A stretch of DNA of 64,000 bases, from the NCBI GenBank assembly GCA_963662655.2, contig CAXXTU010000002.1, forward strand, positions 3,584,001 through 3,648,000. Direction: 5' to 3'. This document shows, in pieces, positions 76-60,859 of the stretch; positions within the stretch are counted from its first letter, which is position 1; each line of letters opens with the position of its first letter. This stretch comes from Candidatus Cloacimonadales bacterium. GTDB taxonomy: Bacteria > Cloacimonadota > Cloacimonadia > Cloacimonadales > JAIOQZ01. Both the position numbers and the translations under genes were made by a program. A model generated the notes under the pieces. It saw nothing but the letters and a program-made list of their open reading frames with translations, made no database searches and was not told the DNA's origin.

Positions 76-1031
76 TAGAATTTCCTGCTGAGGATCAACA
101 TTGGCGTAACATGGTCGTTGCAGAGAATCGGCTGTACGTTGAATTCGTAACGCGGAGCTTTCGAGATGTACTCCACGTTGTAGGATTTTGTTACACGATA
201 GGCGTCGATGATCGCCACAAGGTGGTTCAGCATGATTCCCCATGTGCAGTAGTCCGCTTTCGTGTAGTAGTCTTCAGCTTCCTGTCGCATATCGATGTAT
301 TCGTCGCGTAGTGCGGAATCCCTGGATGGATCAGTTTCATCATTATAGTCGGGATTCGTCGGGTAATTCCCGATCCACTTGTGATTCGGATCATCGGCTG
401 AGGTATCCCACGCCCATGAGTAATTACCCTGGTAACCGTATTTATTATGCCAGTCAGTCCAGCCGAAAACGTATTTGTTGTATTTACCGATATCTTCATA
501 GAAGTGCTGCGTATTGGTTTCATCGAGCCGGAAATGTGTTTCATCGTAGATGTCTTGCACCTCGGCGTCTTCGCCAATGACATCCATCATATTGTCGCGA
601 GCTTCATAATACAGCTCTCGATCATAATGCAAGTCGGCGTAATCCTCGTAGGCGTCTTCCTTATCGAGTCCTTCTTTCTGGAAGTGAATATATCCTACCC
701 AAAGCGCGATCTCGAGAATGGGGAATACATAGCCGGTCCAGGAGCGATAGTTTGCGTAGATCGATCCAGAGCCGGGAATTAACGCGGAACATGCCATTGC
801 GAGCGCTGCCGATTTCTTCCGGTAGTTTACGACAATGATATCGTCACCGGCAACTTCGTCGATGTCTTCGATTTCCACTTTCGGTCTTTCCTGTTCCTCA
901 TGTTTAGCCGCTTTTGTATCTTCAAGCTTGATGGTCTCTTCGGTATCCGTGGCGTTGAATTCTTCAACTTCCTGCGCTGCGAGAATGGCGAGCATGCTCA
1001 GAACGAGCAGTACCGACAGTATTTTCTTCAT
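75..1031 (-). CDS. Secreted/outer-membrane hypothetical protein (DUF5683/TM2-like hydrophobic motif)
   Basis: 318-aa ORF with a signal peptide, a KKSAALAMACSALIPGSGSIY motif and a C-terminal Phe; same operon as porV. Confidence 0.65.
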   Translation of the reverse strand: MKKILSVLLVLSMLAILAAQEVEEFNATDTEETIKLEDTKAAKHEEQERPKVEIEDIDEVAGDDIIVVNYRKKSAALAMACSALIPGSGSIYANYRSWTGYVFPILEIALWVGYIHFQKEGLDKEDAYEDYADLHYDRELYYEARDNMMDVIGEDAEVQDIYDETHFRLDETNTQHFYEDIGKYNKYVFGWTDWHNKYGYQGNYSWAWDTSADDPNHKWIGNYPTNPDYNDETDPSRDSALRDEYIDMRQEAEDYYTKADYCTWGIMLNHLVAIIDAYRVTKSYNVEYISKAPRYEFNVQPILCNDHVTPMLILSRKF

Positions 1032-1052
1032 TGATCGCCTCCAGGCAAAGTC

Positions 1053-4000
1053 TTAATTTTCTATACCAAACCGGATGGTTTTCTTTTGTCCGTCCGATTC
1101 AACAATTCCAAAATACAATCCCGAAGCCATATTCCGTGTATCGATGCGAATCGATTCATCCGCTTCATAGCTTCGGTCGCAGATCATATCCCCTGCGATG
1201 TTGTAGAGCTTCACATCGATTTTAGCCTGCGCTCCCTCAACTTTCAGCCGCAACTGGCCGCTTCGCACGGGATTGGGGTAAGCAATCACGCTCAAACGCT
1301 GATCTGCGGATGGGGAATAGGTGATGGCGCCGTAAAAACAGCCGTATCCACCGTTTCGATAGCCATTCCAGTCGATCGGATTTTCGTAAACCTCATCAAT
1401 GGAAGCGATGCCGATTCGGCACACTTCGCTCTGGCTGGCAGGATCCTCGTAAAAATCGTTGTAGATATAATTCAGGCGAGCGCTATCCTTCTCCCAGTGG
1501 AAGAAATCAAGTCCCGGTTTTCCGTTCCATCCGAGCGAGAAGAAGGGTTGATAATCTCCATTGGCGTTTACCGCGAAATACCCCTGTCGCTCTCCCGGCA
1601 TCAGTACAATTGATTGATCCAGCAACTCGACGATTGCGGGATAACCTCCAGGCATGATGTTCAAATCTTCCAGCCGTGCGGGAAATCCATCGGCCATGAC
1701 ACCTTCGGTGTCTATCGCGAAGATGGTGTTTCCAGCCCCGAAGAAGAGGTAGACTCGACCGTCGTCCATGGGCGCGCCGATCGAAAGATTGGTCGTCGCT
1801 GCAGTTGTATACGGATATATCTCGAATATGCGCTTTACCTGTCCATCGCGGATTCTGTACAGATCACCCTCGTCGGACAACATGAAAACGGCATTATTGG
1901 CAACGTTTGCCGTGTCGTAGAATGCGATGGGATCGTAAGAAGTTGCTTCGAACGGCATCGTGATTTCGTTCTCGATCGAGAATTCACTCTGGTAATCGAT
2001 CTTGTACAGAACGCCCTCTGAGAAAGCATACAGATAGCGATCATCCGCGGCCAGGGACGCATTTCCGATTGGGAGAGCGTCGGTATGGGGCGCGAAATCC
2101 TGCGATCCGCCCTTGAATTTGTAGATGAAATTCCCGGTGCAGACGGCAAAACTGTTTTCATTTCCTGCTACCAAAGGGAACGGTGGGGACGTAACCTCCG
2201 ATGTAAAGGTGATGGAACCGAACGACTCGGCTGTCTTCAGAACATGCAAATCTTTGCCGGCCGCAACGACCCATTCGTCGTAGCCGTCTTCATCGTAATC
2301 GAAAGCTATGGGCGTCTGCGTCGGTTTGAATGAGAGCGGGACCTGCGTGAGCATGTCGTTCCAGTCATCCAGGCTTCCGCCATCGTAGAAATGCGATATG
2401 AAATTGACTCCATGATTGGAGAAAACGGGGAATTCGGATATCGTGGAATTGGGAAGGAAATCGGAGAGACCCGCTCTTCCCATTGTTACAACAGAATCGA
2501 TCTCGACGAACGGAACATAGCTGATATTATCGAACATCTGAGCTTTGAAACGGAAGCTGACGATTTCTGGAGGTATATGAAATGGCCGGCTGTAGTGGCC
2601 CGAATCGATGTCGTAGATTTCGAACATGGAAGGCTCACCCGCGTTGGTTTGCAATGCGGGTTGCGTTGTCGATGAAATTCTGTTGTTGAACAGGTTGATA
2701 TCCCACCCGGTGAAATATCCGTTGGTGTCAAGAAGCGGTTTGTACTTGTAGAACGGCTCGTAAACGGTACCGTACCAGTATTGCGAATAGACATTCCCGA
2801 TATCCTCGAGGCCGTCCGCTTCTATGATCTTCACGCCGCGGGATTTGTATTTTGTGTTGACGGAGTTGGCAGCGAAGTTGCTGACAAACTCGCCGTCGCT
2901 TTCGTAGGTGCCTTGCTGATAGATGATCTTCTCGTCGACATGCCACATGATCAGGCCGCCGCCGTAGCTGTTGTTGTTCTCATCGTTCCAGCCGGGAAGA
3001 GCGAAGTCGTATTCGTCCGCGTCGTCGTTGTCGTAACCGGTAGGGTAGAAGATAACCTGGGAGTTGGCTCCGTTGTCTCCAACCATCGTGGTGACACCAT
3101 CCTCATCGTGGTCGGTCTGGCGATTCTCGATGAGAATGTATTCCGTATCGCTGAGAGGTATTTTTACGATGTATGCCTGGTTGGGCCCAATATCGCCGGA
3201 GAACTGCTTACCCGCCGCGATAACCTCGATCGGCTGACTAAGGTCGAACTCGGAGATGTCCTTCAGAAGTCCGTTTGCGCGGAACTCGTTGTTCCAAACG
3301 AGTTCCTTGTGGAACGCGCCGGGTAGCGCCGGGATTCCGCCTTCGATGTAGAAGTATTTTTCTCCGTCCGGAATACCGTCGCCGTCATCGTCCGGGCTCA
3401 TGGTCAGGATAGTGGAGCCACCGCTGTCCATGATGTCCCAATAGCCGACTGCCGGACGGAAATTGAAGGTATTGTAGAGGTCTACGAAGCCCAGCGTGTG
3501 GCCGAACTCATGCGCGGTTACGGAGTTCGTAACGCCGTAGCCATCATAAAATTCGATACCGCCCTCCGTGTAAGAAGAGGTGTCCTGGGTTATCATTTCG
3601 GGTACGTTGCACAAGTGCTTGATGTATTTCGCGCCGTTGTCGACAGCCACTTCCTTGCCGTCGCCGATCGTGATGAAGAACGAAGGAATGTCTCCGGGCG
3701 AGTCCCCCTGAATATCGTGCTGCCAGTCCGCCCCGGCGTGAATCACCATGTAGTGACCATAGTCGGAGAAATTGACCGTAGAGTCCGCATCGGCAGTTTG
3801 AAGGACGTCGCGGAAGTATTCTTCGAAGCGCTCGAGCATCAAGCTAGATGAGGCACCGGGCGGATTGTAGTACTTCATCTCCTGGGGAAGCTCGTAGAAT
3901 GATCCGTCCCGAGGGTAGATGTCGCAATCGAGATCGTAGAATCCCTGACTCACTTCAAGGTAGTAGTAGCGCACCGATTCCATGATTTTGGTGAAATACT

Positions 4001-4313
4001 CGTGATCATGCGGTGGCGCGCCCAACGTGATGGGATAGTCGTCGTCTTCCAGCAGGAACTTACCGTTACCCGTCGTTTGCGGGTCGTCGTCTTCCTGGAA
4101 TTCAGCCAGGATAACCAGGAGCTTGTTGTTGGCTCGAAGCGAAGGCTGCTGAACCTTAAGTCCGCCCCCCATCAATTTCTCGATCGGGTGAACGGGGACA
4201 TCTCTTTTTCGGATGGTTTTCCCGAGAATCGGAATCTTGCCGTCCTTCGCAGGAAGCATGGTGAAGCACATCATGCCTGCGACAAAAAGCAGTAAAGCTG
4301 TTGAACGACGCAT
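1053..4313 (-). CDS. M6 (immune inhibitor A-like) metalloprotease with FG-GAP-like region and T9SS-type C-terminal sorting domain
   Basis: Zinc motif HEFGHTLGFVDLY, WDIMDSG Met-turn, EYILIENRQ, and C-terminal AYPNP...YNIAG...SGLYF. Confidence 0.85.
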   Translation of the reverse strand: MRRSTALLLFVAGMMCFTMLPAKDGKIPILGKTIRKRDVPVHPIEKLMGGGLKVQQPSLRANNKLLVILAEFQEDDDPQTTGNGKFLLEDDDYPITLGAPPHDHEYFTKIMESVRYYYLEVSQGFYDLDCDIYPRDGSFYELPQEMKYYNPPGASSSLMLERFEEYFRDVLQTADADSTVNFSDYGHYMVIHAGADWQHDIQGDSPGDIPSFFITIGDGKEVAVDNGAKYIKHLCNVPEMITQDTSSYTEGGIEFYDGYGVTNSVTAHEFGHTLGFVDLYNTFNFRPAVGYWDIMDSGGSTILTMSPDDDGDGIPDGEKYFYIEGGIPALPGAFHKELVWNNEFRANGLLKDISEFDLSQPIEVIAAGKQFSGDIGPNQAYIVKIPLSDTEYILIENRQTDHDEDGVTTMVGDNGANSQVIFYPTGYDNDDADEYDFALPGWNDENNNSYGGGLIMWHVDEKIIYQQGTYESDGEFVSNFAANSVNTKYKSRGVKIIEADGLEDIGNVYSQYWYGTVYEPFYKYKPLLDTNGYFTGWDINLFNNRISSTTQPALQTNAGEPSMFEIYDIDSGHYSRPFHIPPEIVSFRFKAQMFDNISYVPFVEIDSVVTMGRAGLSDFLPNSTISEFPVFSNHGVNFISHFYDGGSLDDWNDMLTQVPLSFKPTQTPIAFDYDEDGYDEWVVAAGKDLHVLKTAESFGSITFTSEVTSPPFPLVAGNENSFAVCTGNFIYKFKGGSQDFAPHTDALPIGNASLAADDRYLYAFSEGVLYKIDYQSEFSIENEITMPFEATSYDPIAFYDTANVANNAVFMLSDEGDLYRIRDGQVKRIFEIYPYTTAATTNLSIGAPMDDGRVYLFFGAGNTIFAIDTEGVMADGFPARLEDLNIMPGGYPAIVELLDQSIVLMPGERQGYFAVNANGDYQPFFSLGWNGKPGLDFFHWEKDSARLNYIYNDFYEDPASQSEVCRIGIASIDEVYENPIDWNGYRNGGYGCFYGAITYSPSADQRLSVIAYPNPVRSGQLRLKVEGAQAKIDVKLYNIAGDMICDRSYEADESIRIDTRNMASGLYFGIVESDGQKKTIRFGIEN

Positions 4314-4321
4314 GGGTATCC

Positions 4322-5419
4322 TTAGAATTCGAAACGGAGGGAGAAGGTTTTCTGGTATTCCTGAAGTTCACCACCCTGTTCCATAGCGGCGTCAACGTTA
4401 ATCTTGTATCGTCCGCCCCACTCGAAGCCGAGACCGATACCGAATGAAGCTCCGGACATGGATCCGGCGGGATCGTCGTAGTAACCTGCGCGGAGTGCGA
4501 GGATATCGTAATAGATGTATTCGGCTCCGTACTTACGGATGATTTCACGAGTCTCCTGCTTCTGTGTGTCATCGCTCCATGCGGAGAACATACGGTTGAA
4601 TACACCGTCTTCGTTAGCCAGAAGCTTGTTCCATTCAGCGTTCAAGGTGAACTTGTTCACTTTGGATTCCAGCAGGCGATAGGAGAGACCGAACGCCCAG
4701 TTCATGGGAAGCGGATCCGCCTGGGATTCGTTGATGTATGTGATGTCGGGGCCGATATTTGTCATGGCCCATGCGTAGTCGAGTTTTGAAAGGTACCAGT
4801 AAAATGATTTCCATGGCGTTTCGCCTTCGCCGTAAGTTCTCAGAGAATGTTTGATACCTACGTCGAAAGCCCAGGAAGTTCCCTGACCCTTCTGCGAGGA
4901 TTCGGTTTCACCGGTTCCTTCAGGGGCCAGATCGCTGTGGATGAGCTTGATGGTTGCGCCAAGGCCTACCTGATCGAAAAGTTCGTAAGCGTAGCTTGGT
5001 CCGAGGGCAATTTCGTAGCTATGGAATTCGCCTTCAGGATTCCCTTCCTCGTCCATTCTCTGCTGCTTACCGTAGGTCATGTAAACAACGTGGAAACCGA
5101 TGTTTCCCGTGTCTTCAAAATATTGATTCCAGGCAAGATACATATGGTACATGTCATCGATGCCTTCCGTGTCGCCAAACCAGTTTGTCGCATTGACCGC
5201 AAGCTGGGTTTTTCTGTTGAAAGCCATCGCGCCAGGATTCCAGAATGGAGCGTAGGCATCATCGACCATCGCGATGTATGCGCCACCCATACCGCCAGCA
5301 CGTGAACCGGGCTGAATCATAAGGAACATTACTCCAGCTTCTGATACCGCGCTAAGCACAATCGGTACAAACAGCGCGACGAGCAGTAAACATACAGCTC
5401 CCGTCTTTCGTGTTATCAT
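4322..5419 (-). CDS. porV: PorV/PorQ-family outer-membrane beta-barrel (T9SS shuttle)
   Basis: FLMIQPGSRAGGMGGAY...FWNPG N-terminal signature, ADPLPMN, GAEYIY...LRAGY and a terminal Phe. Confidence 0.8.
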   Translation of the reverse strand: MITRKTGAVCLLLVALFVPIVLSAVSEAGVMFLMIQPGSRAGGMGGAYIAMVDDAYAPFWNPGAMAFNRKTQLAVNATNWFGDTEGIDDMYHMYLAWNQYFEDTGNIGFHVVYMTYGKQQRMDEEGNPEGEFHSYEIALGPSYAYELFDQVGLGATIKLIHSDLAPEGTGETESSQKGQGTSWAFDVGIKHSLRTYGEGETPWKSFYWYLSKLDYAWAMTNIGPDITYINESQADPLPMNWAFGLSYRLLESKVNKFTLNAEWNKLLANEDGVFNRMFSAWSDDTQKQETREIIRKYGAEYIYYDILALRAGYYDDPAGSMSGASFGIGLGFEWGGRYKINVDAAMEQGGELQEYQKTFSLRFEF

Positions 5420-5541
5420 TCTAAACCTCCAGAAAGTTATTCAATTCAAGGAATTACCACAAAAAAACTGGCAATTTTCAATGCAGGCGGAGATAATAAG
5501 TTGTGAACAAGATTATTCTATTGAATCCTCCAAAAAAAATA

Positions 5542-5629
5542 TGGTGCCGAAGGCCGGACTCGAACCGGCACGCCGCAAAACGGCGGTGGATTTTGAGTCC
5601 ACTGCGTCTACCAGTTTCACCACTTCGGC
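5542..5629 (-). tRNA. tRNA-Leu(CAA)
   Basis: Reverse complement GCCGAAGTGGTGAAACTGGTAGACGCAGTGGACTCAAAATCCAC...GGTTCGAGTCCGGCCTTCGGCACCA: CAA anticodon, long variable arm, encoded CCA. Confidence 0.95.
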
Positions 5630-6109
5630 ATGCGATAGAAACAGACTCTAAATTCGGCACTCGGTGTCAAGAATTTTCTCACCAATGTTGCCTATCAAGT
5701 AACCGTTACAAGCAAATCCGGGCGACGATCTGTTACAACCGACTAAACTTATAACGAGCATCCATTACCGATGTTACAGGAATATTGAATAATCTTGTGT
5801 GAAATATTTGCTGTTGGCGCGTTCTGTAATCGTATACATATCAATAGATAATGGGTGAAGCCTCCCGTTGCCAACGCGCTTCCATTCATGCTGTTTAATC
5901 CTCGGGAGTGGTTGGATGGCTGAAGTGAAGGTGTATTGACGACTCGAAAAAGCATTAATGAAAATTGGCGTTCATTTTTTTGCGTTTGCATCCGGCGCGC
6001 AGAAAATGATAAAAAAAAGTACATGAAACGAGCGGAGGGAATTATATTGTTGAAAATCTCTGATTCTGTCCCGAAGGGGATATCTCGAATGCTATGGAGG
6101 TTCCAATTC

Positions 6110-8368
6110 ATGTTCCGGAAAACGATGATCGTATTTTCTATTCTGATTGTGACTGCAACGTTGTTATCACAAAGCCGTGTCGATAGCCTGAGATCGAGTA
6201 TTGCAGATTACGAGCAGCGCGGAGAGAGCGGCAGCGAATACCTTAAAACGCTCAACGACCTTGCGAAGGAACTGCTATACAGCGCGCCCGACGAGTGCAT
6301 CGAACTGGGAGAGAAAGCGTTGAAAGGCGCTCGGAACATCGGCGACCGGGAGAACGAGGGCATGGCGCTGCTCATGATCGGGAACTCAAATCTGATGATG
6401 GGTCAGTTCGAAAAAGCGCGCGACGAGTATTTCTGCAAGAGCTATAAGATCGGCAAGGATGTCGATTCGAAACTACTAATTTCGAGTTCGCTGAATTCGC
6501 TGGCATCGGTCGCAATGAGTATGGGTGATTACGATCAAGCGCTCGAGACTTTTCTGCAATCGATAGAAATCGAGAAAGAGCGAGGCGACACGATACGGGT
6601 AGCGACGATCCAGTTCAACGTCGCTGGACTCCTGATGAACCGCGGTCAGTACGAGACGGCGTTGGGGTATTTCCTCAATTCCATACGCGTGTTCGAGAAC
6701 ACGGGCCAAACGGAGCTGGTGAAGCGCGGCATGAACAATGTCGCCGTCCTCTACCACGCATGGGGAAATTGGGACAAAGCGCTGGAATACTACGAGAAAT
6801 CGGCGCAAATGTACAAGGAGACCGGCGATTCCCTCGGTATGTCCATTCCGCTCAACAATATCGGCGAGATATACAAAGACCAGGGAAAATACCAGCAGGC
6901 GATCGAGTACTACTCCGAATCGCTTCGCCTCGGTAAGGAGTCGGACAACATGCACTTCCAGGGTGTGGCCAATATCGGTCTGGGCGAAGCATACCTGCGA
7001 CTGGAGAAATTCCCACAGGCGTTGAAGCACCTCAACGATGCACTTGAGATATTCGAGCAGATATCCTTCCAGGAGGGAGAAGCACGTGTTTACAAGCACC
7101 TTGCCGAGATCGATTACCACAAGAAGAATTTCCCCCGCGCTCAGAGCTATGTGGAACGAAGCCTCAAGCTGGCCGGTGAAGCCGGGATCAAGGATCTGAT
7201 TCAGGACGATTACAAATTGCTGTCCGAAATCTATGAGGGGAAATCGGATCACCAAAACGCGCTGACCTATTTCACGAAGTACTCGGCGCTGCGCGATTCG
7301 CTGTTCAACGAAGAGAAATCGAAGAAAATTGCCGAGATGAATGTCAAATACGAGACAGAGAAGAAGGATAAGGAAAATCTCCTTCTGCGCAAGAACAACG
7401 AGATCAAGGAGCTCGAACTCAAGCGAAGGAGAACGCAGCAAACCTACGCCTACGCTCTCGCGCTTCTGATTCTGCTTCTAGCGTTTGTACTGTATCGCAG
7501 GTACAGGCAGAAGCAGAAGGTCAATCTCATGCTCCAGGAGAAGAACGAGCATATTTCGCGGCAGCGGGATCAGTTATCCGCCGCACTCAACGAATTGAAG
7601 GAGACGCAGAAGCAGCTGATCGAGTCCGAGAAGATGGCGTCGCTCGGAAGCCTTGTGACGGGAGTTGCCCACGAGATCAATACACCCGTTGGCATTGGCG
7701 TCACGGCGGCTTCAGCCCTGAAGGACAAAACGGTCAACCTGGCCAGAAACTATCAGGACAACACCATGAAACGCACGGAGCTGGAAGGTTACCTGAAGAC
7801 TGCGTACGAGAGCGCGAATCTGATACTCAAGAACCTTCAGCGCACGGGCGATCTGGTGCAGAGTTTCAAGCAGGTTTCGATCGATCAATCCACCGAGCAG
7901 ATGCGGGAGTTCGGATTGAAGGCGTACCTCGAAGACCTCCTTTTCAGCGTAGGTCCACGTATGAAAGAGAAGAATGTCCAGGTTGCGATCGATATCCCGG
8001 AAGACCTGTCGATCATAAGCTATCCCGGAGCATTCGCAAGCATTTTCACCAACCTGATGGTAAATTCGGTCATCCATGGATTCAAGGACATCGACGGTGG
8101 AAAGATCGAAATGGATGCGACGAGAGAGGACGATCACGTGTTCATCCGGTATCGTGACAATGGCAGGGGGATTCCGAAAGACATTCTGCCGAAAATCTTC
8201 GATCCTTTCTTCACGACGAACAAGCAGCTCGGAACAGGTCTGGGACTTCATATTGTATACAACCAGGTTGTGCAAAAACTGCACGGTGAAATTCTTTGTG
8301 AAAGTGAACTTGACAGCGGGGTTACCTTCATGATTAAAATTCCCGTGAAAATAGGGGAGATCGAATAA
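6110..8368 (+). CDS. TPR-repeat sensor histidine kinase
   Basis: GGAGG RBS before ATG 6110; signal peptide, about 7 TPRs, a TM helix, H-box VAHEINTPVG and HATPase DNGRG/FDPFFTT/GTGLGL. Confidence 0.9.
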   Translation: MFRKTMIVFSILIVTATLLSQSRVDSLRSSIADYEQRGESGSEYLKTLNDLAKELLYSAPDECIELGEKALKGARNIGDRENEGMALLMIGNSNLMMGQFEKARDEYFCKSYKIGKDVDSKLLISSSLNSLASVAMSMGDYDQALETFLQSIEIEKERGDTIRVATIQFNVAGLLMNRGQYETALGYFLNSIRVFENTGQTELVKRGMNNVAVLYHAWGNWDKALEYYEKSAQMYKETGDSLGMSIPLNNIGEIYKDQGKYQQAIEYYSESLRLGKESDNMHFQGVANIGLGEAYLRLEKFPQALKHLNDALEIFEQISFQEGEARVYKHLAEIDYHKKNFPRAQSYVERSLKLAGEAGIKDLIQDDYKLLSEIYEGKSDHQNALTYFTKYSALRDSLFNEEKSKKIAEMNVKYETEKKDKENLLLRKNNEIKELELKRRRTQQTYAYALALLILLLAFVLYRRYRQKQKVNLMLQEKNEHISRQRDQLSAALNELKETQKQLIESEKMASLGSLVTGVAHEINTPVGIGVTAASALKDKTVNLARNYQDNTMKRTELEGYLKTAYESANLILKNLQRTGDLVQSFKQVSIDQSTEQMREFGLKAYLEDLLFSVGPRMKEKNVQVAIDIPEDLSIISYPGAFASIFTNLMVNSVIHGFKDIDGGKIEMDATREDDHVFIRYRDNGRGIPKDILPKIFDPFFTTNKQLGTGLGLHIVYNQVVQKLHGEILCESELDSGVTFMIKIPVKIGEIE

Positions 8369-9321
8369 TGAGTTCATTTGATGATATTTCAGGAAACAGC
8401 CCGTTCGACAAAGATGAGGGCGACCTTTTCCAGTTTGATAAAAAGGAAGCGGAAGCAGGTGGCGACGCGCTGACCTTTGCAGCGGAAGCGCCAATTCAGG
8501 ACGACCTTTCATCGGCGTACATCGGTAAGGAGTGGAAGGTGCTGGTCGTTGACGACGAGCGAGACGTCCACACCGTTACCAAGCTCGCTCTGGACGGTTT
8601 TGAGCTCCAGCAGCGCAACATCGAGTTTCTGGACGCCTTTTCCGCCGAGGAAGCGAAACAGATCATGAAGGCCCACCCGGATATCGCGATCGTTCTGTTG
8701 GACGTGGTGATGGAATCCAATCAGGCCGGGCTTGATCTGGTGCGCTACATCCGCGAGGATTTGGGCAATACGTTCACGCGCATCATCCTGCGTACCGGTC
8801 AGCCGGGAGAAGCGCCAGAGAAAGAGGTCGTGAAAACATACCAGATCAACGACTACAAGACGAAGACCGAATTGACTTCCGACAAGCTATATACTGCCGT
8901 GCTGGCAAGTCTGCGCACCTACGAGGCGATGGTTACGATCTACGCCTACCGGATGAATCTCGAGAAGAAGGTGAAGGAACGTACCCGCGATCTTGAAAAA
9001 TCCCTGAGGGAGTTGCAGGAAGCGCAGCAGGAGATCATCGACCTCGAACGAAAAAATACGGCGCTGGCAATGGCTGTCACCACAAGCCACGAGATCAATC
9101 AGCCGCTCATGGTTATCAAGGGTTCGATGGATTTGATCAATCTGTCGCCTGATCTGAAAACCTTCTCCGAGCAGCAGCGCAAACATCTGGTCAACATCGA
9201 GGATTCCGTTTCGAAGATCAGCACGATCATGAAGAAATTCCACGAGATGGACTCGATCAAATTCAGCGACTACACAGACGATACGCAGATGGTCGATTTC
9301 GAGAGCGAGGACGAACAGTAG
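8368..9321 (+). CDS. Response regulator receiver plus HisKA-like (DHp-only) protein
   Basis: VLVVDDE, LLDVVM, ILRTGQPG receiver motifs and SHEINQPL; no HATPase; translationally coupled to the kinase. Confidence 0.85.
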   Translation: MSSFDDISGNSPFDKDEGDLFQFDKKEAEAGGDALTFAAEAPIQDDLSSAYIGKEWKVLVVDDERDVHTVTKLALDGFELQQRNIEFLDAFSAEEAKQIMKAHPDIAIVLLDVVMESNQAGLDLVRYIREDLGNTFTRIILRTGQPGEAPEKEVVKTYQINDYKTKTELTSDKLYTAVLASLRTYEAMVTIYAYRMNLEKKVKERTRDLEKSLRELQEAQQEIIDLERKNTALAMAVTTSHEINQPLMVIKGSMDLINLSPDLKTFSEQQRKHLVNIEDSVSKISTIMKKFHEMDSIKFSDYTDDTQMVDFESEDEQ

Positions 9322-9329
9322 AGCTCACA

Positions 9330-11102
9330 TCATCTGAGAAGCAATAATTTCTGCACGCTGGATTTCCCCCCGCAATGCATTCTGCAGAAATAGACGCCCG
9401 ACGCAACCTGCCTGTTGTGGCTATCCACGCCCATCCAGACAAGCGATATGTTCTGATCCGCCGGAACGCTGTCGTTCAGCAACGTGCGAACCTTCTGACC
9501 CTTTACATTGAAAATCTCCACTTCAACTTTCCCGGCTTCGGGGACTGATAGATTGATCGCGCCACCGATAGAATACGGATTTTGCATGGCCAGGAGCATC
9601 GTTGAGATGTTGTCGTCCACGTGATACTGTTCCTGATCCATATAATGGTATTCGTAGCATCCGATATCGATACGTCCATTCTCGATGCGCTCGTTACCGG
9701 CAAGGTCGTAAAACGTAACCGGAATATTGCTTGTGTTCGGTGTTCCTGCGTCGATGCATGCTGAGCCGTCCTGTAGTGTGTAGGGGAAGTTCTCCTCCAT
9801 CGTGAAGAGCGGATCGGCTTCGATGTTGTTGATGTATGAATAGCTCCCGGAATCCAATGCGGGTCCGCCGATACTTCCCTGCCCGTTTTCGATCAGACAA
9901 TAAAGGAATGTCGGAAATCCATACGAAGGGTGCTCCTGGTAGTATTGAAGATCGTCCTGGGAGTCGTTGCCCCATATAATGCAGTTGTAGAATCTGGAGA
10001 ACGCCTTCACGGAGTAGAAAGCGCCTGCCTGTTCGGCGTGATTTGCCGTAATGGTACAATTGTAGAAGTACGGATAGTTCAACGACAGGGCGTAGAACGC
10101 GCCTCCAAACTCGCCGGTGTTATTCTCGAACAGGGAATTGACGATATACGGGATATAGACGGTATTCCCGATATAACACGCGCCGCCGTCATCCGCGGTA
10201 TTTTCGGTGAACACGCACGATTCGATCAGGAAATCGCCACCAAAAGCGCTCAAAGCGCCGCCGGCGTCGGCGAAATTGTTCGAGAAATTGCATTCAACGA
10301 TATCCGAGTTACAATAATCGATGTGAAGCCCCCCGCCGTCCATGCCAGACTGATTGTTGTGAAAATCGCAGTTGTCAAAGCGGAGAAACGCATCGATGCC
10401 CAACATCCCGCCGCCCGAACTCGATGCGACGTTGCCGATGAAATCGCAGCGTTCGAATATCTGTGTTTCATCGCTGCGGTTGACGACGCAAGCAGCGCCG
10501 TAAATCGCCCGATTACCTGTGAAATCGGTTCGGGAGACCTCTATATAACTTCTTTCGGCGTAAAGACCGCCGCCTTCGAGGTCGCCGATATTCTCGTCGA
10601 AGAGGCAGCTCGCGAATGTCGCCTCGCTGTTCAGGACAGCCACGGCTCCACCGCAGGAAGCGAAATTGTCATAGAACCGGCACCTCTCGAATGAGAGCTG
10701 GCTTTGTTCACGGGCGTGGATCGCTCCACCGTAGTAGTCCTCATCGTGGTTGAAACCGTTTCCCTTTTCGAAGACGCAGTGACTGAAATCGCCCGTCGCC
10801 TGCCGAAACCGCAATCCGCCCCAACCGTTCGGAGCTTGCGAAGTGAAACGCACCGAGTCCTGATCGGTTCCGTAAACCATCATGTTGCCATTGACGAAGA
10901 AGGAATATGGCCCGGTGAACATGACGGTTGTTCCCGCTTCGATGGTGAGGTTGATAAACGGTTCGAGCGTGATATCTCTCGCGATATACATCGTGTCCGC
11001 TTGCCAGGTCGTATCTTTGGCAATTGTTCCGGGAGCATTGGAAACGTTTGCTCCAAGCGTCATTGCGATCGCGATTAGTATGAGTGTTGTTATCTGTTTC
11101 AT
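9330..11102 (-). CDS. Secreted right-handed beta-helix (pectin-lyase/Pmp-like) protein with FlgD/T9SS-type C-terminal domain
   Basis: Signal peptide MKQITTL (ATGA overlap with upstream stop), repeated FxxNxAxxGG, DLAGNERI...DIGCYE and IFNVKGQKVRTL. Confidence 0.85.
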   Translation of the reverse strand: MKQITTLILIAIAMTLGANVSNAPGTIAKDTTWQADTMYIARDITLEPFINLTIEAGTTVMFTGPYSFFVNGNMMVYGTDQDSVRFTSQAPNGWGGLRFRQATGDFSHCVFEKGNGFNHDEDYYGGAIHAREQSQLSFERCRFYDNFASCGGAVAVLNSEATFASCLFDENIGDLEGGGLYAERSYIEVSRTDFTGNRAIYGAACVVNRSDETQIFERCDFIGNVASSSGGGMLGIDAFLRFDNCDFHNNQSGMDGGGLHIDYCNSDIVECNFSNNFADAGGALSAFGGDFLIESCVFTENTADDGGACYIGNTVYIPYIVNSLFENNTGEFGGAFYALSLNYPYFYNCTITANHAEQAGAFYSVKAFSRFYNCIIWGNDSQDDLQYYQEHPSYGFPTFLYCLIENGQGSIGGPALDSGSYSYINNIEADPLFTMEENFPYTLQDGSACIDAGTPNTSNIPVTFYDLAGNERIENGRIDIGCYEYHYMDQEQYHVDDNISTMLLAMQNPYSIGGAINLSVPEAGKVEVEIFNVKGQKVRTLLNDSVPADQNISLVWMGVDSHNRQVASGVYFCRMHCGGKSSVQKLLLLR

Positions 11103-25237: not shown

Positions 25238-25256
25238 CCGACAATCGAACTTTGAA

Positions 25257-25288
25257 AAGCCCTCGCAATTTGTGGGGGCTTCTTTTTT
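25257..25288 (+). terminator. Rho-independent terminator
   Basis: AAGCCCTCGCA / TGTGGGGGCTT stem plus T-tract. Confidence 0.65.
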
Positions 25289-25393
25289 CTAATCGAACAA
25301 ATACTCACTAGCTTCAGTGAATTACAAAAGAATGGACATTTTTCACAAAATACACGATACTGGAGATCAGTTATTTTTATCGAGGAGGATTTC

Positions 25394-27454
25394 GTGACAA
25401 AGGTAAATCGTTTGGTATTTTCGATAGTGTGTTTCATTGTTGTATTTCCTTTATTTTTAACGGCATATACTGATGCCGAGCTTGTACAAACATTCCAGGA
25501 TCAAGATGGCAATTCAATCGATAGGGTACTCGTCCCCGGGCGTCCACCCGCTGATTACCGTGTGCCGGCCGTCGAATTACCGGAACCGGGTTCGCGCGAG
25601 GGAATAAAAATATTATCCCATATGCCAGCATTCAACTGGTGCTATGGTTGTTCGGCAACCTCGGCGGCAATGATTGCAGGATATTATGACAACCACGGAT
25701 ATGATAACATGTATAGCGGCCCCGCCAACGGTGGCATCGTTCCGATGGACAATTCGGTCTGGGGATATGGTGAATGCCCCTTGAGTGCGACCCATCAGGG
25801 CTTTGACGGCTTGACGGCACGAGGTCATGTTGACGACTATTGGTATAATTACGATTCAACGATCGATCCGTACTACGGTCACTGGACCCAGCACGGTTAC
25901 GCCGATTGCACGGCGGATTTCATGGGTACGAATCAGTATCAAAATTACGGGAATACAGATGGTTTGACCATGTTCTACTATTATTCAAACGGTAACCGGT
26001 TATATGATTATTCAGGATGTGAGCCTTCCGATAAAGACGGCTGCCACGGCCTGAGGGAATTTTTCGAATCCAGAGGTTACTCGATGGGCAGTTATGCCAA
26101 CTACAATCAGTACATCTATGGACACAATGGGAATACCGCCGGTTTTACATTCAGTAATTTCATGGAGGAAATCGATGCAGGCCGTCCGGTTCTGATTCAT
26201 ATAACCGGGCACACCATGGTTGGCTTCGGATATAACGAGACGGAAGAGCTTGTATATATCCACGATACATGGGATCACGATAATCACACTATGACTTGGG
26301 GAGGACAGTACTGTGGGTCGCAACATATAGCGGTGTCGGCATTCATTCTCGATCCGATCCCCGGAATCGTCGAGCCGGATGTTCCCGGAAACACGATGAT
26401 CGAAACGCAGGGAGGCAACATTGTCCTCAGTTGGGACGACAGTGGCGCGGACGCGTATCATGTGTACGCCTCGGAGAGAATCGATTTCTCCTCTCCGATT
26501 CTGATGACAAATCAGGGCACATTCTCCTCAAATGGTGGCCGGATATCCTGGACGACCTCCGCGGCGATCTCCGAGCGCCTCTTTTTCCGCGTTACAGCGG
26601 AGAATCTGGAAGGAATACAAGAAGATTTTGTGTATGTTCCTGCCGGATCATTTCAGATGGGACGAACAGGAGTCGCCGTACCGGTGCATACCGTCAATCT
26701 GGACGCCTTCTATGTCGGGAAATGCGAGGTGACGCATCAACAGGTGATCGATGTGTATAATTGGGCTTACCAGCATGGTTATATCAGTTGCAGCACGAGC
26801 ACGGTGACAAACACCCAGGGTATTCAAAAGGAATTGCTAGATTTGAATGATAGCAGTTGCGCGATTGATTGGAGTGGCGGTCAATTGGTATTCAATGATA
26901 ATTCCTACGTGTCCAGTACGCAATGCCCCTGCATCAGGATTACCTGGTACGGCGCGCTTGCTTATTGCAATTTCCTGAGCTTGTACGAAGGCTTGACCCC
27001 TTGCTACAATATGTCTAATTGGAGTTGCAACTGGAATGCAAACGGCTATCGTTTGCCCACGGAAGCCGAGTGGGAGTACAGCGCACGCGGAGCGACGAAT
27101 AATCCGGATTATACCTATGCCGGGAATAACAATATCAATTATGTGGCGTGGTATTCGTCAAACTCGAGCAGCCAGACTCACCCCGTAGGACAATTACTTG
27201 AGAATGGAATAGGGACATTCGATCAAAGTGGAAATGTTTATGAATGGGTCTGGGACTGGTGGAGTAGCGATTACTATAGCAATTCCCCCACGAACAATCC
27301 CACAGGACCCTCATCTGGCACACAACGGATTGTCCGGGGTGGTTGTTGGGAATTCAACTCATCGAATTGCGATGTTGCTTATCGTAATAGTCGTGGAGAG
27401 CCAGAATATAGCGAGAGAAAAGTGGGATTCCGTATTGTGCGAAACGCGGAATAG
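25394..27454 (+). CDS. Secreted papain-fold (C39/C10-like) peptidase + FN3-like + FGE-sulfatase (SUMF1/CLec) domain protein
   Basis: GAGGAGG RBS and GTG start; WCYGCSATSAAM (Cys), GHTMVGFGY (His); YRLPTEAEWEY, DQSGNVYEW, RGG.W and GFRIVR. Confidence 0.8.
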   Translation: MTKVNRLVFSIVCFIVVFPLFLTAYTDAELVQTFQDQDGNSIDRVLVPGRPPADYRVPAVELPEPGSREGIKILSHMPAFNWCYGCSATSAAMIAGYYDNHGYDNMYSGPANGGIVPMDNSVWGYGECPLSATHQGFDGLTARGHVDDYWYNYDSTIDPYYGHWTQHGYADCTADFMGTNQYQNYGNTDGLTMFYYYSNGNRLYDYSGCEPSDKDGCHGLREFFESRGYSMGSYANYNQYIYGHNGNTAGFTFSNFMEEIDAGRPVLIHITGHTMVGFGYNETEELVYIHDTWDHDNHTMTWGGQYCGSQHIAVSAFILDPIPGIVEPDVPGNTMIETQGGNIVLSWDDSGADAYHVYASERIDFSSPILMTNQGTFSSNGGRISWTTSAAISERLFFRVTAENLEGIQEDFVYVPAGSFQMGRTGVAVPVHTVNLDAFYVGKCEVTHQQVIDVYNWAYQHGYISCSTSTVTNTQGIQKELLDLNDSSCAIDWSGGQLVFNDNSYVSSTQCPCIRITWYGALAYCNFLSLYEGLTPCYNMSNWSCNWNANGYRLPTEAEWEYSARGATNNPDYTYAGNNNINYVAWYSSNSSSQTHPVGQLLENGIGTFDQSGNVYEWVWDWWSSDYYSNSPTNNPTGPSSGTQRIVRGGCWEFNSSNCDVAYRNSRGEPEYSERKVGFRIVRNAE

Positions 27455-38815: not shown

Positions 38816-39976
38816 CTATTCCGCGTTCCGGACGATGCGGAAGCCGGTGCTGTTCCCACTGCTTGCTGGTGTGGTTCCGGCGCGAAAGGCAATCTGGCAG
38901 TAGAACGAGCTAAAACTGAAGTAGCCGCCACGGATTTCTCTGCGTGTACCCGTATCCGGTCCATGAGGATTGTCGGGCTCGGTGAGATTATCGAAGCTCG
39001 TTGACCAGTCCCAGCACCATTCAAGCACATTTCCGCTCTGGTCATACGTTCCAATACCGTTCGCCTGTTTCTCACCCACGGGATGCGCATGCCCACTGGA
39101 GTTCGAGCTATACCATGCGACATCATCACAATCGTTGCTGCCTGCATACGTGTAGTCCGGTGTGTTGGTCGCACCGCGTGCGGAGTATTCCCACTCCGCT
39201 TCAGTGGGAAGGCGATAGCCGTCAGCGCTCCAGTTGCAGGTTACAGTGGCTCCGCTGATAGTGTAGCATGGCGTGTAGCCGTCTATCTGGCTAAGCCAGT
39301 TGCAGTACTCCACCGCGCCGAACCAGGATACGTAGATCATTGGGCAGTTCGGAGACGTATTGTAGCTTCCACCCTGGAACACGTACTCGCCATTGATCCG
39401 ATAGATTCCGCTATCGCCGTTGATCTGGGTAACGCACTGATTGCCGTTGTATGCACCGGAGATATCCATGCTCACTTCGTTCATAAAAAGAAGGTATTCA
39501 GCGATTGTGAGCTCGAATGTGCCAATGTAGAACGCGTCCAGATTCACCGTGTGAATCGGAGTAGCCACGCCAGTACGCCCCATCTCAAAGCTACCGGCGG
39601 GGACATACACGAAGCCATCCGGTACCGGCGTTTGCCCGTCGTCGGCGGTGATCTTGAAGCGGAAGTCGTCGCCGCTCATATTGGGATGTTCCGCGAGAAC
39701 GTCCCACACGATGTGCTTGCCGTTTCCGGAGTAGATTCCCGGACCAATATCACCGGTCACGAGATTACAGCTTAGATTCCAAGTCGCGCCGTTGTCGTCG
39801 GAAACGTTCATCACGATCGTCATCTCGTCACCGTCGGCGTCGTAGAGGTTATAGTAGATATCCATCTTGCGGGAGCCGTCGTCACGTTGGGAAGCAGTTG
39901 TGTTCGACACCACCGGCGCTTCCGCGCTGAGCGCGATGCCGGTGAGTAAGGCGAGTATGAAGATAATCTTTCGCAT
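38816..39976 (-). CDS. Secreted Ig-like + FGE-sulfatase (SUMF1/CLec-fold) protein, paralog B
   Basis: AGGAGGAG RBS, signal peptide, YRLPTEAEWEYSARG, DQSGNVLEWCWD, RGG, GFRIVR. Confidence 0.9.
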   Translation of the reverse strand: MRKIIFILALLTGIALSAEAPVVSNTTASQRDDGSRKMDIYYNLYDADGDEMTIVMNVSDDNGATWNLSCNLVTGDIGPGIYSGNGKHIVWDVLAEHPNMSGDDFRFKITADDGQTPVPDGFVYVPAGSFEMGRTGVATPIHTVNLDAFYIGTFELTIAEYLLFMNEVSMDISGAYNGNQCVTQINGDSGIYRINGEYVFQGGSYNTSPNCPMIYVSWFGAVEYCNWLSQIDGYTPCYTISGATVTCNWSADGYRLPTEAEWEYSARGATNTPDYTYAGSNDCDDVAWYSSNSSGHAHPVGEKQANGIGTYDQSGNVLEWCWDWSTSFDNLTEPDNPHGPDTGTRREIRGGYFSFSSFYCQIAFRAGTTPASSGNSTGFRIVRNAE

Positions 39977-41000
39977 GTTCTCCTCCTATTCCGCGGTCCT
40001 GCAAAGGCGGAAGCCGATGAAGTAGTAGCCATTGGACGGCGTGTAGAGGTGGCGAATGGCAACCTCGCAGCCCCACGCGTAGTCGTACCAGCAGCCGCCA
40101 CGCATCCTACGGTACGAGCCGGTAGCAGGGCCATGAGGGTTGGTCTGTGTACCCGATGTATATGAACCATACCAGTCCCAGCACCATTCCCATACATTGC
40201 CGCTCTGGTCATACGTCCCAATACCATTCGCCTGCTTCTGCCCCACGGGATGGGGCTGTCTACCAGAGCCAGTATCAGAATTGTCGTAATACCACGCTAC
40301 ATCGTCAATTGTATCGCTCCCTGAATACAAATAGTCCGGGGTGTTGGTCGCACCACGAGCGCTGTACTCCCATTCCGCCTCCGTGGGAAGGCGGTAGCCG
40401 TTGGCGGACCAGTTCACATCGGGTGTGAAGCTGCCGCCCCAGTTGTCCGGATTCGTGTCACCGGATACGGAGTACACTGGCGTCAACCCTTCTTGAATGC
40501 TGCTATAGTTGCAGTATTTCACAACCGAATACCAAGAGACACGCTCCACAGGTCGTTGCATGTCGCCGGTGAAGTATGATGGATTGCTCCCCATCACATC
40601 CACCCATTCCTGTTGAGTTACCTCATACGTACCAATGTAAAACGCGTCCAAATTCACCGTGTGAATCGGAGTAGCTACGTCTGTCCGCCCCATCTGGAAG
40701 CTGCCGGAGGGGACGTATACAAAGCCATCCGGTACCGGCGTTTGTCCGTCGTCGGCTACGATCTTGAAGCGGAAGTCGTCGCCGCTCATATTGGGATGCT
40801 CCGCAAGAACATCCCACACAATGTGCTTGCCATTGCCAGAGTAGATCCCCGGACCAATATCGCCGGTCACGAGATTACAGCTTAGATTCCAAGTCGCGCC
40901 ATCGTCATCGGATACGTTCATCACGATTGTCATCGCGTCGCCGTCGGCGTCGTACACGTTGTAATTGATATCCACTTTGCGGGAACCGTCGTCGCGCTGG
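39520..41000. repeat. Direct repeat pair (about 39520-39890 and 40630-41000, offset 1110 bp)
   Basis: Long shared stretches such as GATCTTGAAGCGGAAGTCGTCGCCGCTCATATTGGGATG and CCGGTCACGAGATTACAGCTTAGATTCCAAGTCGCGCC, with mostly synonymous differences. Confidence 0.9.
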
Positions 41001-41086
41001 GTGGCGGTTACGTTCGTTATTTCGGGGGCCGTGCACCACAGGGCAATCGGCAGAAGTACAGCAAGGAGCATAAGTATTTTATTCAT
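39986..41086 (-). CDS. Secreted Ig-like + FGE-sulfatase (SUMF1/CLec-fold) protein, paralog A; candidate DGR target
   Basis: Signal peptide, EVTQ.EW...MGSNPS.F, YRLPTEAEWEY, QSGNVWEWCWD, RGGCW...IGFRL. Confidence 0.9.
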   Translation of the reverse strand: MNKILMLLAVLLPIALWCTAPEITNVTATQRDDGSRKVDINYNVYDADGDAMTIVMNVSDDDGATWNLSCNLVTGDIGPGIYSGNGKHIVWDVLAEHPNMSGDDFRFKIVADDGQTPVPDGFVYVPSGSFQMGRTDVATPIHTVNLDAFYIGTYEVTQQEWVDVMGSNPSYFTGDMQRPVERVSWYSVVKYCNYSSIQEGLTPVYSVSGDTNPDNWGGSFTPDVNWSANGYRLPTEAEWEYSARGATNTPDYLYSGSDTIDDVAWYYDNSDTGSGRQPHPVGQKQANGIGTYDQSGNVWEWCWDWYGSYTSGTQTNPHGPATGSYRRMRGGCWYDYAWGCEVAIRHLYTPSNGYYFIGFRLCRTAE

Positions 41087-59729: not shown

Positions 59730-60032
59730 ATGAGAAGACCACGACGTAATCACTCGGCGACATTCAAGGCGAAAGTGGCTCTGGCCGCGCTCAAGGGCGA
59801 CCGGACGCTTGCCGAACTTGCAGCACAATTCGACGTACATCCCAACCAGATATCGGACTGGAAGCAGCAGATGCTGGACAACGCTTCTCAGGTTTTTGGC
59901 GGTCCGCGTAAGGACAAGGACAACGAACCCGACGTGAAGGCAATGCACGCCAAGATCGGCGAGCTGACCCTCGAGAATGATTTTTTAGAAAAGGCGCTCA
60001 TCAAGGCGGGAAAACTGAGCGCAAAGCGATGA
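59730..60032 (+). CDS. IS3 transposase OrfA (HTH)
   Basis: AAGGAG RBS; RRNHSATFKAKVALAAL...LAAQFDVHPNQISDWK. Confidence 0.9.
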   Translation: MRRPRRNHSATFKAKVALAALKGDRTLAELAAQFDVHPNQISDWKQQMLDNASQVFGGPRKDKDNEPDVKAMHAKIGELTLENDFLEKALIKAGKLSAKR

Positions 60033-60859
60033 TCGACCGCGACCACAAGCTGCCGGTAAGCCAGCAGTGCCGTGTTCTGAAGCTGTCTCGATCCAGCTTC
60101 TACTACCAACCCCGACCGCTCCAGGAGAACATCCTGAGGCTCATGCGGCGAATCGACGATCTGCATCTGGAATACCCGTTCGCAGGCGCAAGGATGCTGA
60201 GAGAAATGTTGTTTAGGGACGGGTGGAAAGTCGGGCGACGCCGTGTCGGCACGCTGATGAAGAAGATGGGCATCACCGCACTGTATCGCAAGCCCAACAC
60301 CAGCAAGCCGCATCCCGGGCACACGATTTACCCCTATCTGTTGCGCGATATGGAGATCACCCGACCGAACCAGGTCTGGACCGCCGACATCACGTATATC
60401 CCGATGAAACGGGGATCTGTCTATCTGTTCGCGGTGATGGACTGGTACTCGCGCCGCGTACTCGCCTGGCAGCTATCCAACACACTGAGCGCCGATTTCT
60501 GTGTCGAGACCGTCGAGGAAGCGATGCAAATACATGGTCGCCCCGAGATATTCAACACGGATCAGGGAAGCCAGTTTACGAGCGCAAAGTTCACCGGATT
60601 GCTCAAGGAAAATGGCGTTTCGATCAGTATGGACGGCAAGGGTTGCTGGCGGGACAACGTCTTTGTGGAGCGGCTTTGGAAGACATTCAAGTACGAGGAG
60701 GTTTATCTGAAGGCGTACGACAGCGTCAGCGACGCGCGAGGATCATAGCAGAAATATCTGGACTTCTATAACCGGATGCGGCCACACTCGGCTCACGGTG
60801 GTTGCACGCCTGATGAAATGTATCGAAAAGACTCGGAGCATCTACCTGATGCAGCATGA
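60029..60859 (+). pseudogene. IS3 transposase OrfB (DDE integrase core) with premature TAG
   Basis: W.ADITYI, FNTDQGSQF, DNVFVERLW; TAG at 60746-60748, then the frame continues QKYLDFYNRMRPHSAHGGCTPDEMY... Confidence 0.85.

Follow-up and report, generated by a model that had tools for sequence, protein, structure and literature searches.

A 64,000-nt stretch of Cloacimonadales DNA (here, the window) contains a gene, gene A (39986-41086, minus strand, 366 aa), with a tail that resembles the variable repeat (VR) of a DGR, raising the question of whether a retroelement wrote this tail and, if so, where that retroelement is. In a DGR, the RT makes an error-prone copy of a template RNA, the errors falling at adenines, and this cDNA takes the place of the VR; in BPP-1, an IMH and a downstream hairpin are required (PMC3240598). 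FGE-type CLec domains are the largest class of DGR targets, and remote targets exist (Wu et al. 2018, PMC5758913). An earlier note had proposed that the gene A tail is such a trans-targeted VR, and the comparisons below uphold it as a DGR variable repeat (redraw and pairwise tests), not as the target of a retroelement in its own genome.

Gene A and the variable-repeat signature of its tail

Gene A codes for a predicted secreted, TvpA-like binding protein with a hydrophobic leader (read by eye from the sequence), an N-terminal domain of ∼100 aa, and an FGE/C-type-lectin domain at residues 121 to 362 (PF03781, E value 1e-44). The best match to this domain in the PDB is TvpA (2Y3C; residues 10 to 243 of the domain, E value 2.8e-41), and the CLec (FGE-type) assignment is from sequence only, as a single-sequence structure model (pLDDT 33) was set aside. 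Like TvpA of the Treponema denticola DGR, which has remote targets (category b in PMC5758913), gene A has a C-terminal CLec VR ending in GFR; it differs in having an extra N-terminal domain and a tandem paralogue without a VR, and in that the TvpA genome has a full DGR and that of gene A has none. By homology, the product would be a TvpA-like CLec adhesin that is secreted or displayed at the surface and binds a ligand with a single, fixed specificity. It is the sole member of its 90% cluster, its named homologues are mostly from Cloacimonetes, and the best full-length homologue beyond its own genome is ∼53 to 56% identical.

The paralogue, gene B (38816-39976, minus strand, 386 aa, PF03781), starts 10 nt past the gene A stop codon (39986-39988) and shares the N-terminal domain, the N-terminal parts being 87% identical at the DNA level; beyond it is a tRNA-Arg gene on the opposite strand. 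A third FGE gene in the window (25256-27454, plus strand) has its domain behind a long N-terminal region and an AT-rich tail without a VR signature, and two short open reading frames at 59730-60748 have the appearance, by eye, of an IS3-family transposase pair. Elsewhere in this genome (G000), a truncated FGE fragment (contig C2, 2340675-2340920) is 70% identical to the middle of gene A and is missing the VR part.

The VR spans 39 codons (40007-40123, minus strand) and is colinear with templates of the order Cloacimonadales; the remaining bases past GFR (39986-40006) occupy the inferred position of the IMH in intact pairs and are near-identical to the end of an FGE gene of the sister species (G002:C6). 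The 3'-end codons quoted in the earlier note are present from 40120 down to 40007, and its YDY, HLY, and YYF triplets are indeed composed entirely of NNC codons. The nine C-ending codons for these residues have a probability of 0.006 under genome codon usage (drawn from 1,546 long open reading frames), a post-hoc figure, and the caveat that C-ending codons are common here is a fair one (Tyr TAC, 0.63; Phe TTC, 0.76). Across the 39-codon tail, 25 codons end in C, where genome usage predicts 16.9 (p = 0.0035) and the usage of gene A upstream of the tail predicts 15.8 (p = 0.00075). The claim that each variable codon is reachable by changing only template adenines holds for most of them, with the exceptions of a TGG (Trp) in an AAC column and an AGG in a GTG column.

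A synonymous-redraw test was used in which the protein is fixed, synonymous codons are redrawn 1,000 times, and the tails are scored against real templates of the order. The template set derives from 33 distinct motif matches, at least two of which are not templates and six of which were dropped because they have no GFR anchor; 18 are colinear with gene A. Against the closest of these 18, the tail mismatches at 14 non-A positions, where 27.9 would be expected, and none of the 1,000 redraws reaches 14. Among its 15 AAY columns, 11 codons end in C versus 5.7 expected (p = 0.003, same test). Of 101 FGE tails collected, 79 are colinear and were scored in this way; five paralogues from the same genome give no significant result (p = 0.12 to 0.78), the gene B tail has no VR signature (p = 0.24), and gene C is not colinear with the templates and was excluded. 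The gene A tail thus carries a DGR variable-repeat signature at the end of an FGE-type CLec domain, with adenine-column variation on a conserved non-A scaffold both against a sister VR and against noncognate templates.

The sister VR is that of a nonorthologous FGE gene coding for a 666-aa protein (G002:C13), the best of nine partners compared with gene A. The two tails differ at 29 bases, 25 of them in the 40 template-A columns and four in the other 77 (p = 2e-11). Only 1 of 39 third positions differs in the tail, compared with 66% upstream (p = 2.5e-14), and there are no synonymous changes at the 20 residues shared in the tail, compared with 66 of 102 (∼65%) upstream (p = 2e-8); between 20 best-hit gene pairs of the two species, 40 to 61% of synonymous sites differ. 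The G002:C6 gene and one G006 gene show the same pattern against gene A, more weakly, and the tails of gene B and G002:C14 show no such synonymous conservation. Gene B also has an excess of differences from gene A in the A columns (28/40 versus 25/77 elsewhere, p = 0.0002), so the A-column test on its own is partly driven by protein constraint; from the adenine-column differences and the zero synonymous change, we infer that the gene A and G002:C13 tails were written recently, from almost one template and well after the two species had separated. Proteins with differing N termini (366, 666, and 775 aa) end in this one scaffold, and gene A retains 15 of 40 adenines, with 15/40 and 20/40 in true VRs. 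At each of the four non-A differences from G002:C13, it is gene A that deviates from the order consensus; every one alters a residue, and three are near the 5' edge. Intact template/VR pairs of the order also have a few non-A mismatches (∼3/19, 6/25, and 2/19), so these deviations are no proof of decay.

DGR machinery in this genome and its relatives

Genome G000 (3.81 Mb, 98.95% complete) is assembled in two contigs, with no terminal overlap found. The retroelement partner that the earlier note expected elsewhere in the genome was not found: G000 has no DGR-clade RT, no template that matches the VR at all but adenine positions, and neither of the accessory genes, Avd and HRDC. No template was found by blastn or by an A-wildcard 60-nt scan for all eight FGE hits, and the best candidate in a full-length scan has 34 non-A mismatches and lies in gene B, compared with 0 and 4 for two true control pairs. 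The top windows in a generic AAY-density scan have 11 in-frame AAY codons and are in genes for Asn-rich proteins, compared with 13 to 17 in templates. With a profile built from six DGR RTs of the order, not including the held-out RT of G040, G000 gives no match, and tblastn with four DGR RTs finds nothing at an E value of 1. The Avd profile NF033474 reaches at best 21 bits (cut-off, 80), locus L002 (21 bits) being rejected as an Avd on this score, and tblastn with four Avd and three HRDC queries from the order finds nothing at an E value of 0.1. No cassette remnant that would mark a loss was found in G000. The only RT of the genome is AbiP2-like (E value 1.6e-113) and was rejected as a DGR RT; it is an anti-phage RT gene at L001:1141-2700 (G000:C2, ∼981050-982600), split by one in-frame TGA.

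DGRs are present in relatives at large, and it is only for G000 itself that the refuting outcome named in the earlier note, no RT or template in the genome or its relatives, was observed. The DGR-RT profile scores at least 485 bits in 7 of 41 genomes (the six that built it and the held-out G040) and at most 137 bits in the gene A family, the RTs of which were rejected as DGR RTs, being group II intron-like (by motif and neighborhood), Drt8, or, in one case, an unclassified long RT. Avd exceeds its cut-off in six of the 41 genomes, none of them in this family, and four of the six Avd-positive loci have template/VR pairs with FGE targets in the stretches examined. Of 203 genomes in the order, 46 contain a generic template motif; none of the eight in the gene A family does. 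Intact FGE-targeting cassettes are present in other Cloacimonadales families (G013, G009, G038, G035, and G111), with colinear 117-nt templates and the same AAY columns as gene A; an N-terminal start resembling that of gene A by eye is seen in the target or in a neighboring open reading frame of G035 and G009. These cassettes differ from gene A in that their templates are at least 14 non-A sites away and in having a T-rich tract and the cassette genes downstream of the target. In G009 (L085; C1, ∼1392000-1393200), the target of an intact cassette is truncated by a TGA that lies in frame in the VR where the template reads AAA, a DGR-made stop codon.

None of the templates of other Cloacimonadales families is cognate to gene A, the best having 14 non-A mismatches in 117 nt. 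In one example from the order, templates differ at only 4 of 117 positions beside upstream RT-side DNA that is 70 to 71% identical; because templates evolve slowly, a scaffold common to several species is to be expected. The gene A scaffold pattern, with two mismatches allowed, matches only gene A and two G002 tails in 232 genomes of the phylum. Pattern scans of larger collections, which register only exact matches and from which close genomes may be missing, gave no matches in two short degenerate-pattern scans of a viral collection, none in one such scan of a metagenome collection, and none and five in two scans of GTDB, the five being the two G002 tails and three unrelated chance matches. 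Protein-based searches of 10 viral loci and the best 78 of 578 metagenome loci returned no template with fewer than 22 non-A mismatches.

The gene A tail is not the only one of its kind in the order. VR-like FGE tails without a DGR RT or template motif are also found in G008 (L065 and L074), G026 (L008), and G037 (L025), with 0 to 13 non-A mismatches to the templates of other genomes; G008, which has 51 FGE matches, and G026 are single-contig genomes, and G037 is a draft. As the earlier note cautioned, no hairpin follows gene A, the sole perfect stem (5 bp) being 71 nt downstream and within gene B; a perfect stem is also absent from three of six intact targets of the order. All six cassette targets examined (L084, L085, L087, L089, L123, and L133) are followed, within 35 nt of the stop codon, by a T-rich tract (T content, 0.49 to 0.63), and four template-less tails in other families retain it. 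T content after the gene A stop is 0.23, with no such tract, and four other tails examined in its family also have none. The tract is possibly a lineage-specific targeting signal.

Origin of the gene A repeat

The tail fits the description of an orphan VR, a kind already described in Treponema, and fails as a complete DGR. T. denticola isolates without an RT and template hold target genes with VRs that were read as leftovers (Nimkulrat et al. 2016, PMC4891356). The gene A tail is like these in its FGE-type target, in a VR that departs from related templates mainly at adenines, in a genome without an RT or template, and in patchy DGR gain and loss among relatives; it is different in that the cognate T. 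denticola template is known from conspecific isolates, and that of gene A turned up in no search and is deduced from one scaffold in two species. A VR signature, no RT or template, and intact systems in relatives were all found, with the intact systems lying in other families and in none of the eight genomes of its own.

We consider it probable that the tail was orphaned by recent loss of its DGR, with the tip frozen as in T. denticola, a reading that draws on the VR signature, the non-A scaffold common to two G002 FGE genes, and the lack of a DGR RT, template, and accessory gene. A cellular cassette (target, HRDC and/or Avd, RT, and template), like those in other Cloacimonadales, would once have been present in the genus of gene A, and several FGE genes, whether cassette-adjacent or remote, would have received copies of its template bearing A-to-N errors. 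The cassette would then have been deleted or have departed from the genome, leaving the lectin tip of gene A frozen. The scaffold is fresh in two species, with no synonymous changes, so that either recent loss in both lineages or a visiting element is needed, and given slow template change, vertical inheritance with two recent losses and a passing element both fit. The two-contig assembly without terminal overlap counts against loss, as do the lack of any cassette remnant and the fact that plasmids and phages need not bin with a genome.

That the pattern reflects codon bias and protein conservation with no retroelement involved is very improbable: the frequent TAC and TTC codons and the A-column excess of gene B lend it something, and the redraw result (14 versus 27.9, with five negative paralogue controls) speaks against it, while the 0 of 20 synonymous differences from an other-species gene saturated upstream (p = 2e-8; third positions, p = 2.5e-14) effectively refutes it. 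Import of the tail or whole gene by recombination from a DGR-bearing relative, gene A never having been targeted in G000, is an alternative named in PMC4891356 that we regard as unlikely here. Secreted proteins of this family exchange FGE modules by shuffling, one scaffold ends proteins of 366, 666, and 775 aa, the N-terminal parts of genes A and B (87% identical) are converted, and fragments occur, namely the truncated FGE fragment on contig C2 and a 73-nt VR 3' fragment fused to a phage remnant in G001. Against this, synonymous conservation extends just as far as the template length, the upstream sequence is saturated against every partner tested, and no donor was found, the closest full-length homologue outside the genome being the ∼53 to 56% identical one.

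It is more doubtful still that gene A is an active trans target, its RT and template being on a plasmid, phage, or subpopulation element missed in the assembly or binning of the genome. This is the proposal of the earlier note with the retroelement placed off the chromosome. A DGR on such a mobile element would circulate in the genus and act in trans on several host species, rewriting lectin genes on their chromosomes, a scenario we rate as equally doubtful, and one that would account for two synonymously saturated species having fresh tails on one scaffold, with the machinery on neither chromosome. The retention of 15 of 40 adenines, as in true VRs, also fits. The available reads are two shallow runs holding the region, contigs only, from one sample that is probably the source. 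In run X2, the summed depth of the bin over the VR is 5.7, compared with ∼2 for the host, which may favor an active element; contigs of both runs span the VR with no other letters (depths, 5.5 and 2), which weighs only weakly against one, with one sample and 40 of 76 differences listed. An additional 4,077-nt contig aligns upstream and over the final 34 nt, leaving 40020-40114 unaligned, and its depth does not track that of the host; it is a homologue that belongs to another organism and ends in a different tail. Continued activity is further opposed by the lack of a template in the viral, metagenome, and GTDB scans, by the absence at gene A (T content, 0.23) of the T-rich tract seen at six of six cassette targets (0.49 to 0.63), and by remote targets being described almost only for non-phage DGRs (Wu et al., PMC5758913). 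If it were true, a mobile element still writing chromosomal genes across species would be a mode of DGR action not found in the published accounts consulted.

As an orphan VR, the tail is evidence that DGR output persists in lineages without a DGR, so that proteins shaped by DGRs are undercounted in surveys anchored on the RT; Roux et al. state that remote targets escape their survey (PMC8144416). It also shows how the conservation of synonymous sites in nonorthologous genes can reveal a template that is missing. Cloacimonadota DGR RTs are mentioned in PMC11661182, and we found no account of orphan VRs in Cloacimonadota in the open-access main texts searched; supplementary target lists may bear on the point.

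Phage tail modules

The 73-nt fragment in G001 (L096:6131-6203; C1:349130-349202) is a 3' VR-type tail with a stop codon, fused to a phage tail remnant and with no FGE gene upstream; it and the phage remnants were rejected as a template source, having no template or RT nearby. A degraded phage tail module is present in several copies in G000 (C2, ∼400-9900, 312200, 477000-482500, 2752000-2758500, and 3322000), some of which are interrupted by insertion sequences or genes for secreted proteins. An FGE gene with a VR-like tail is located inside this same module in G006 (C44, L095).
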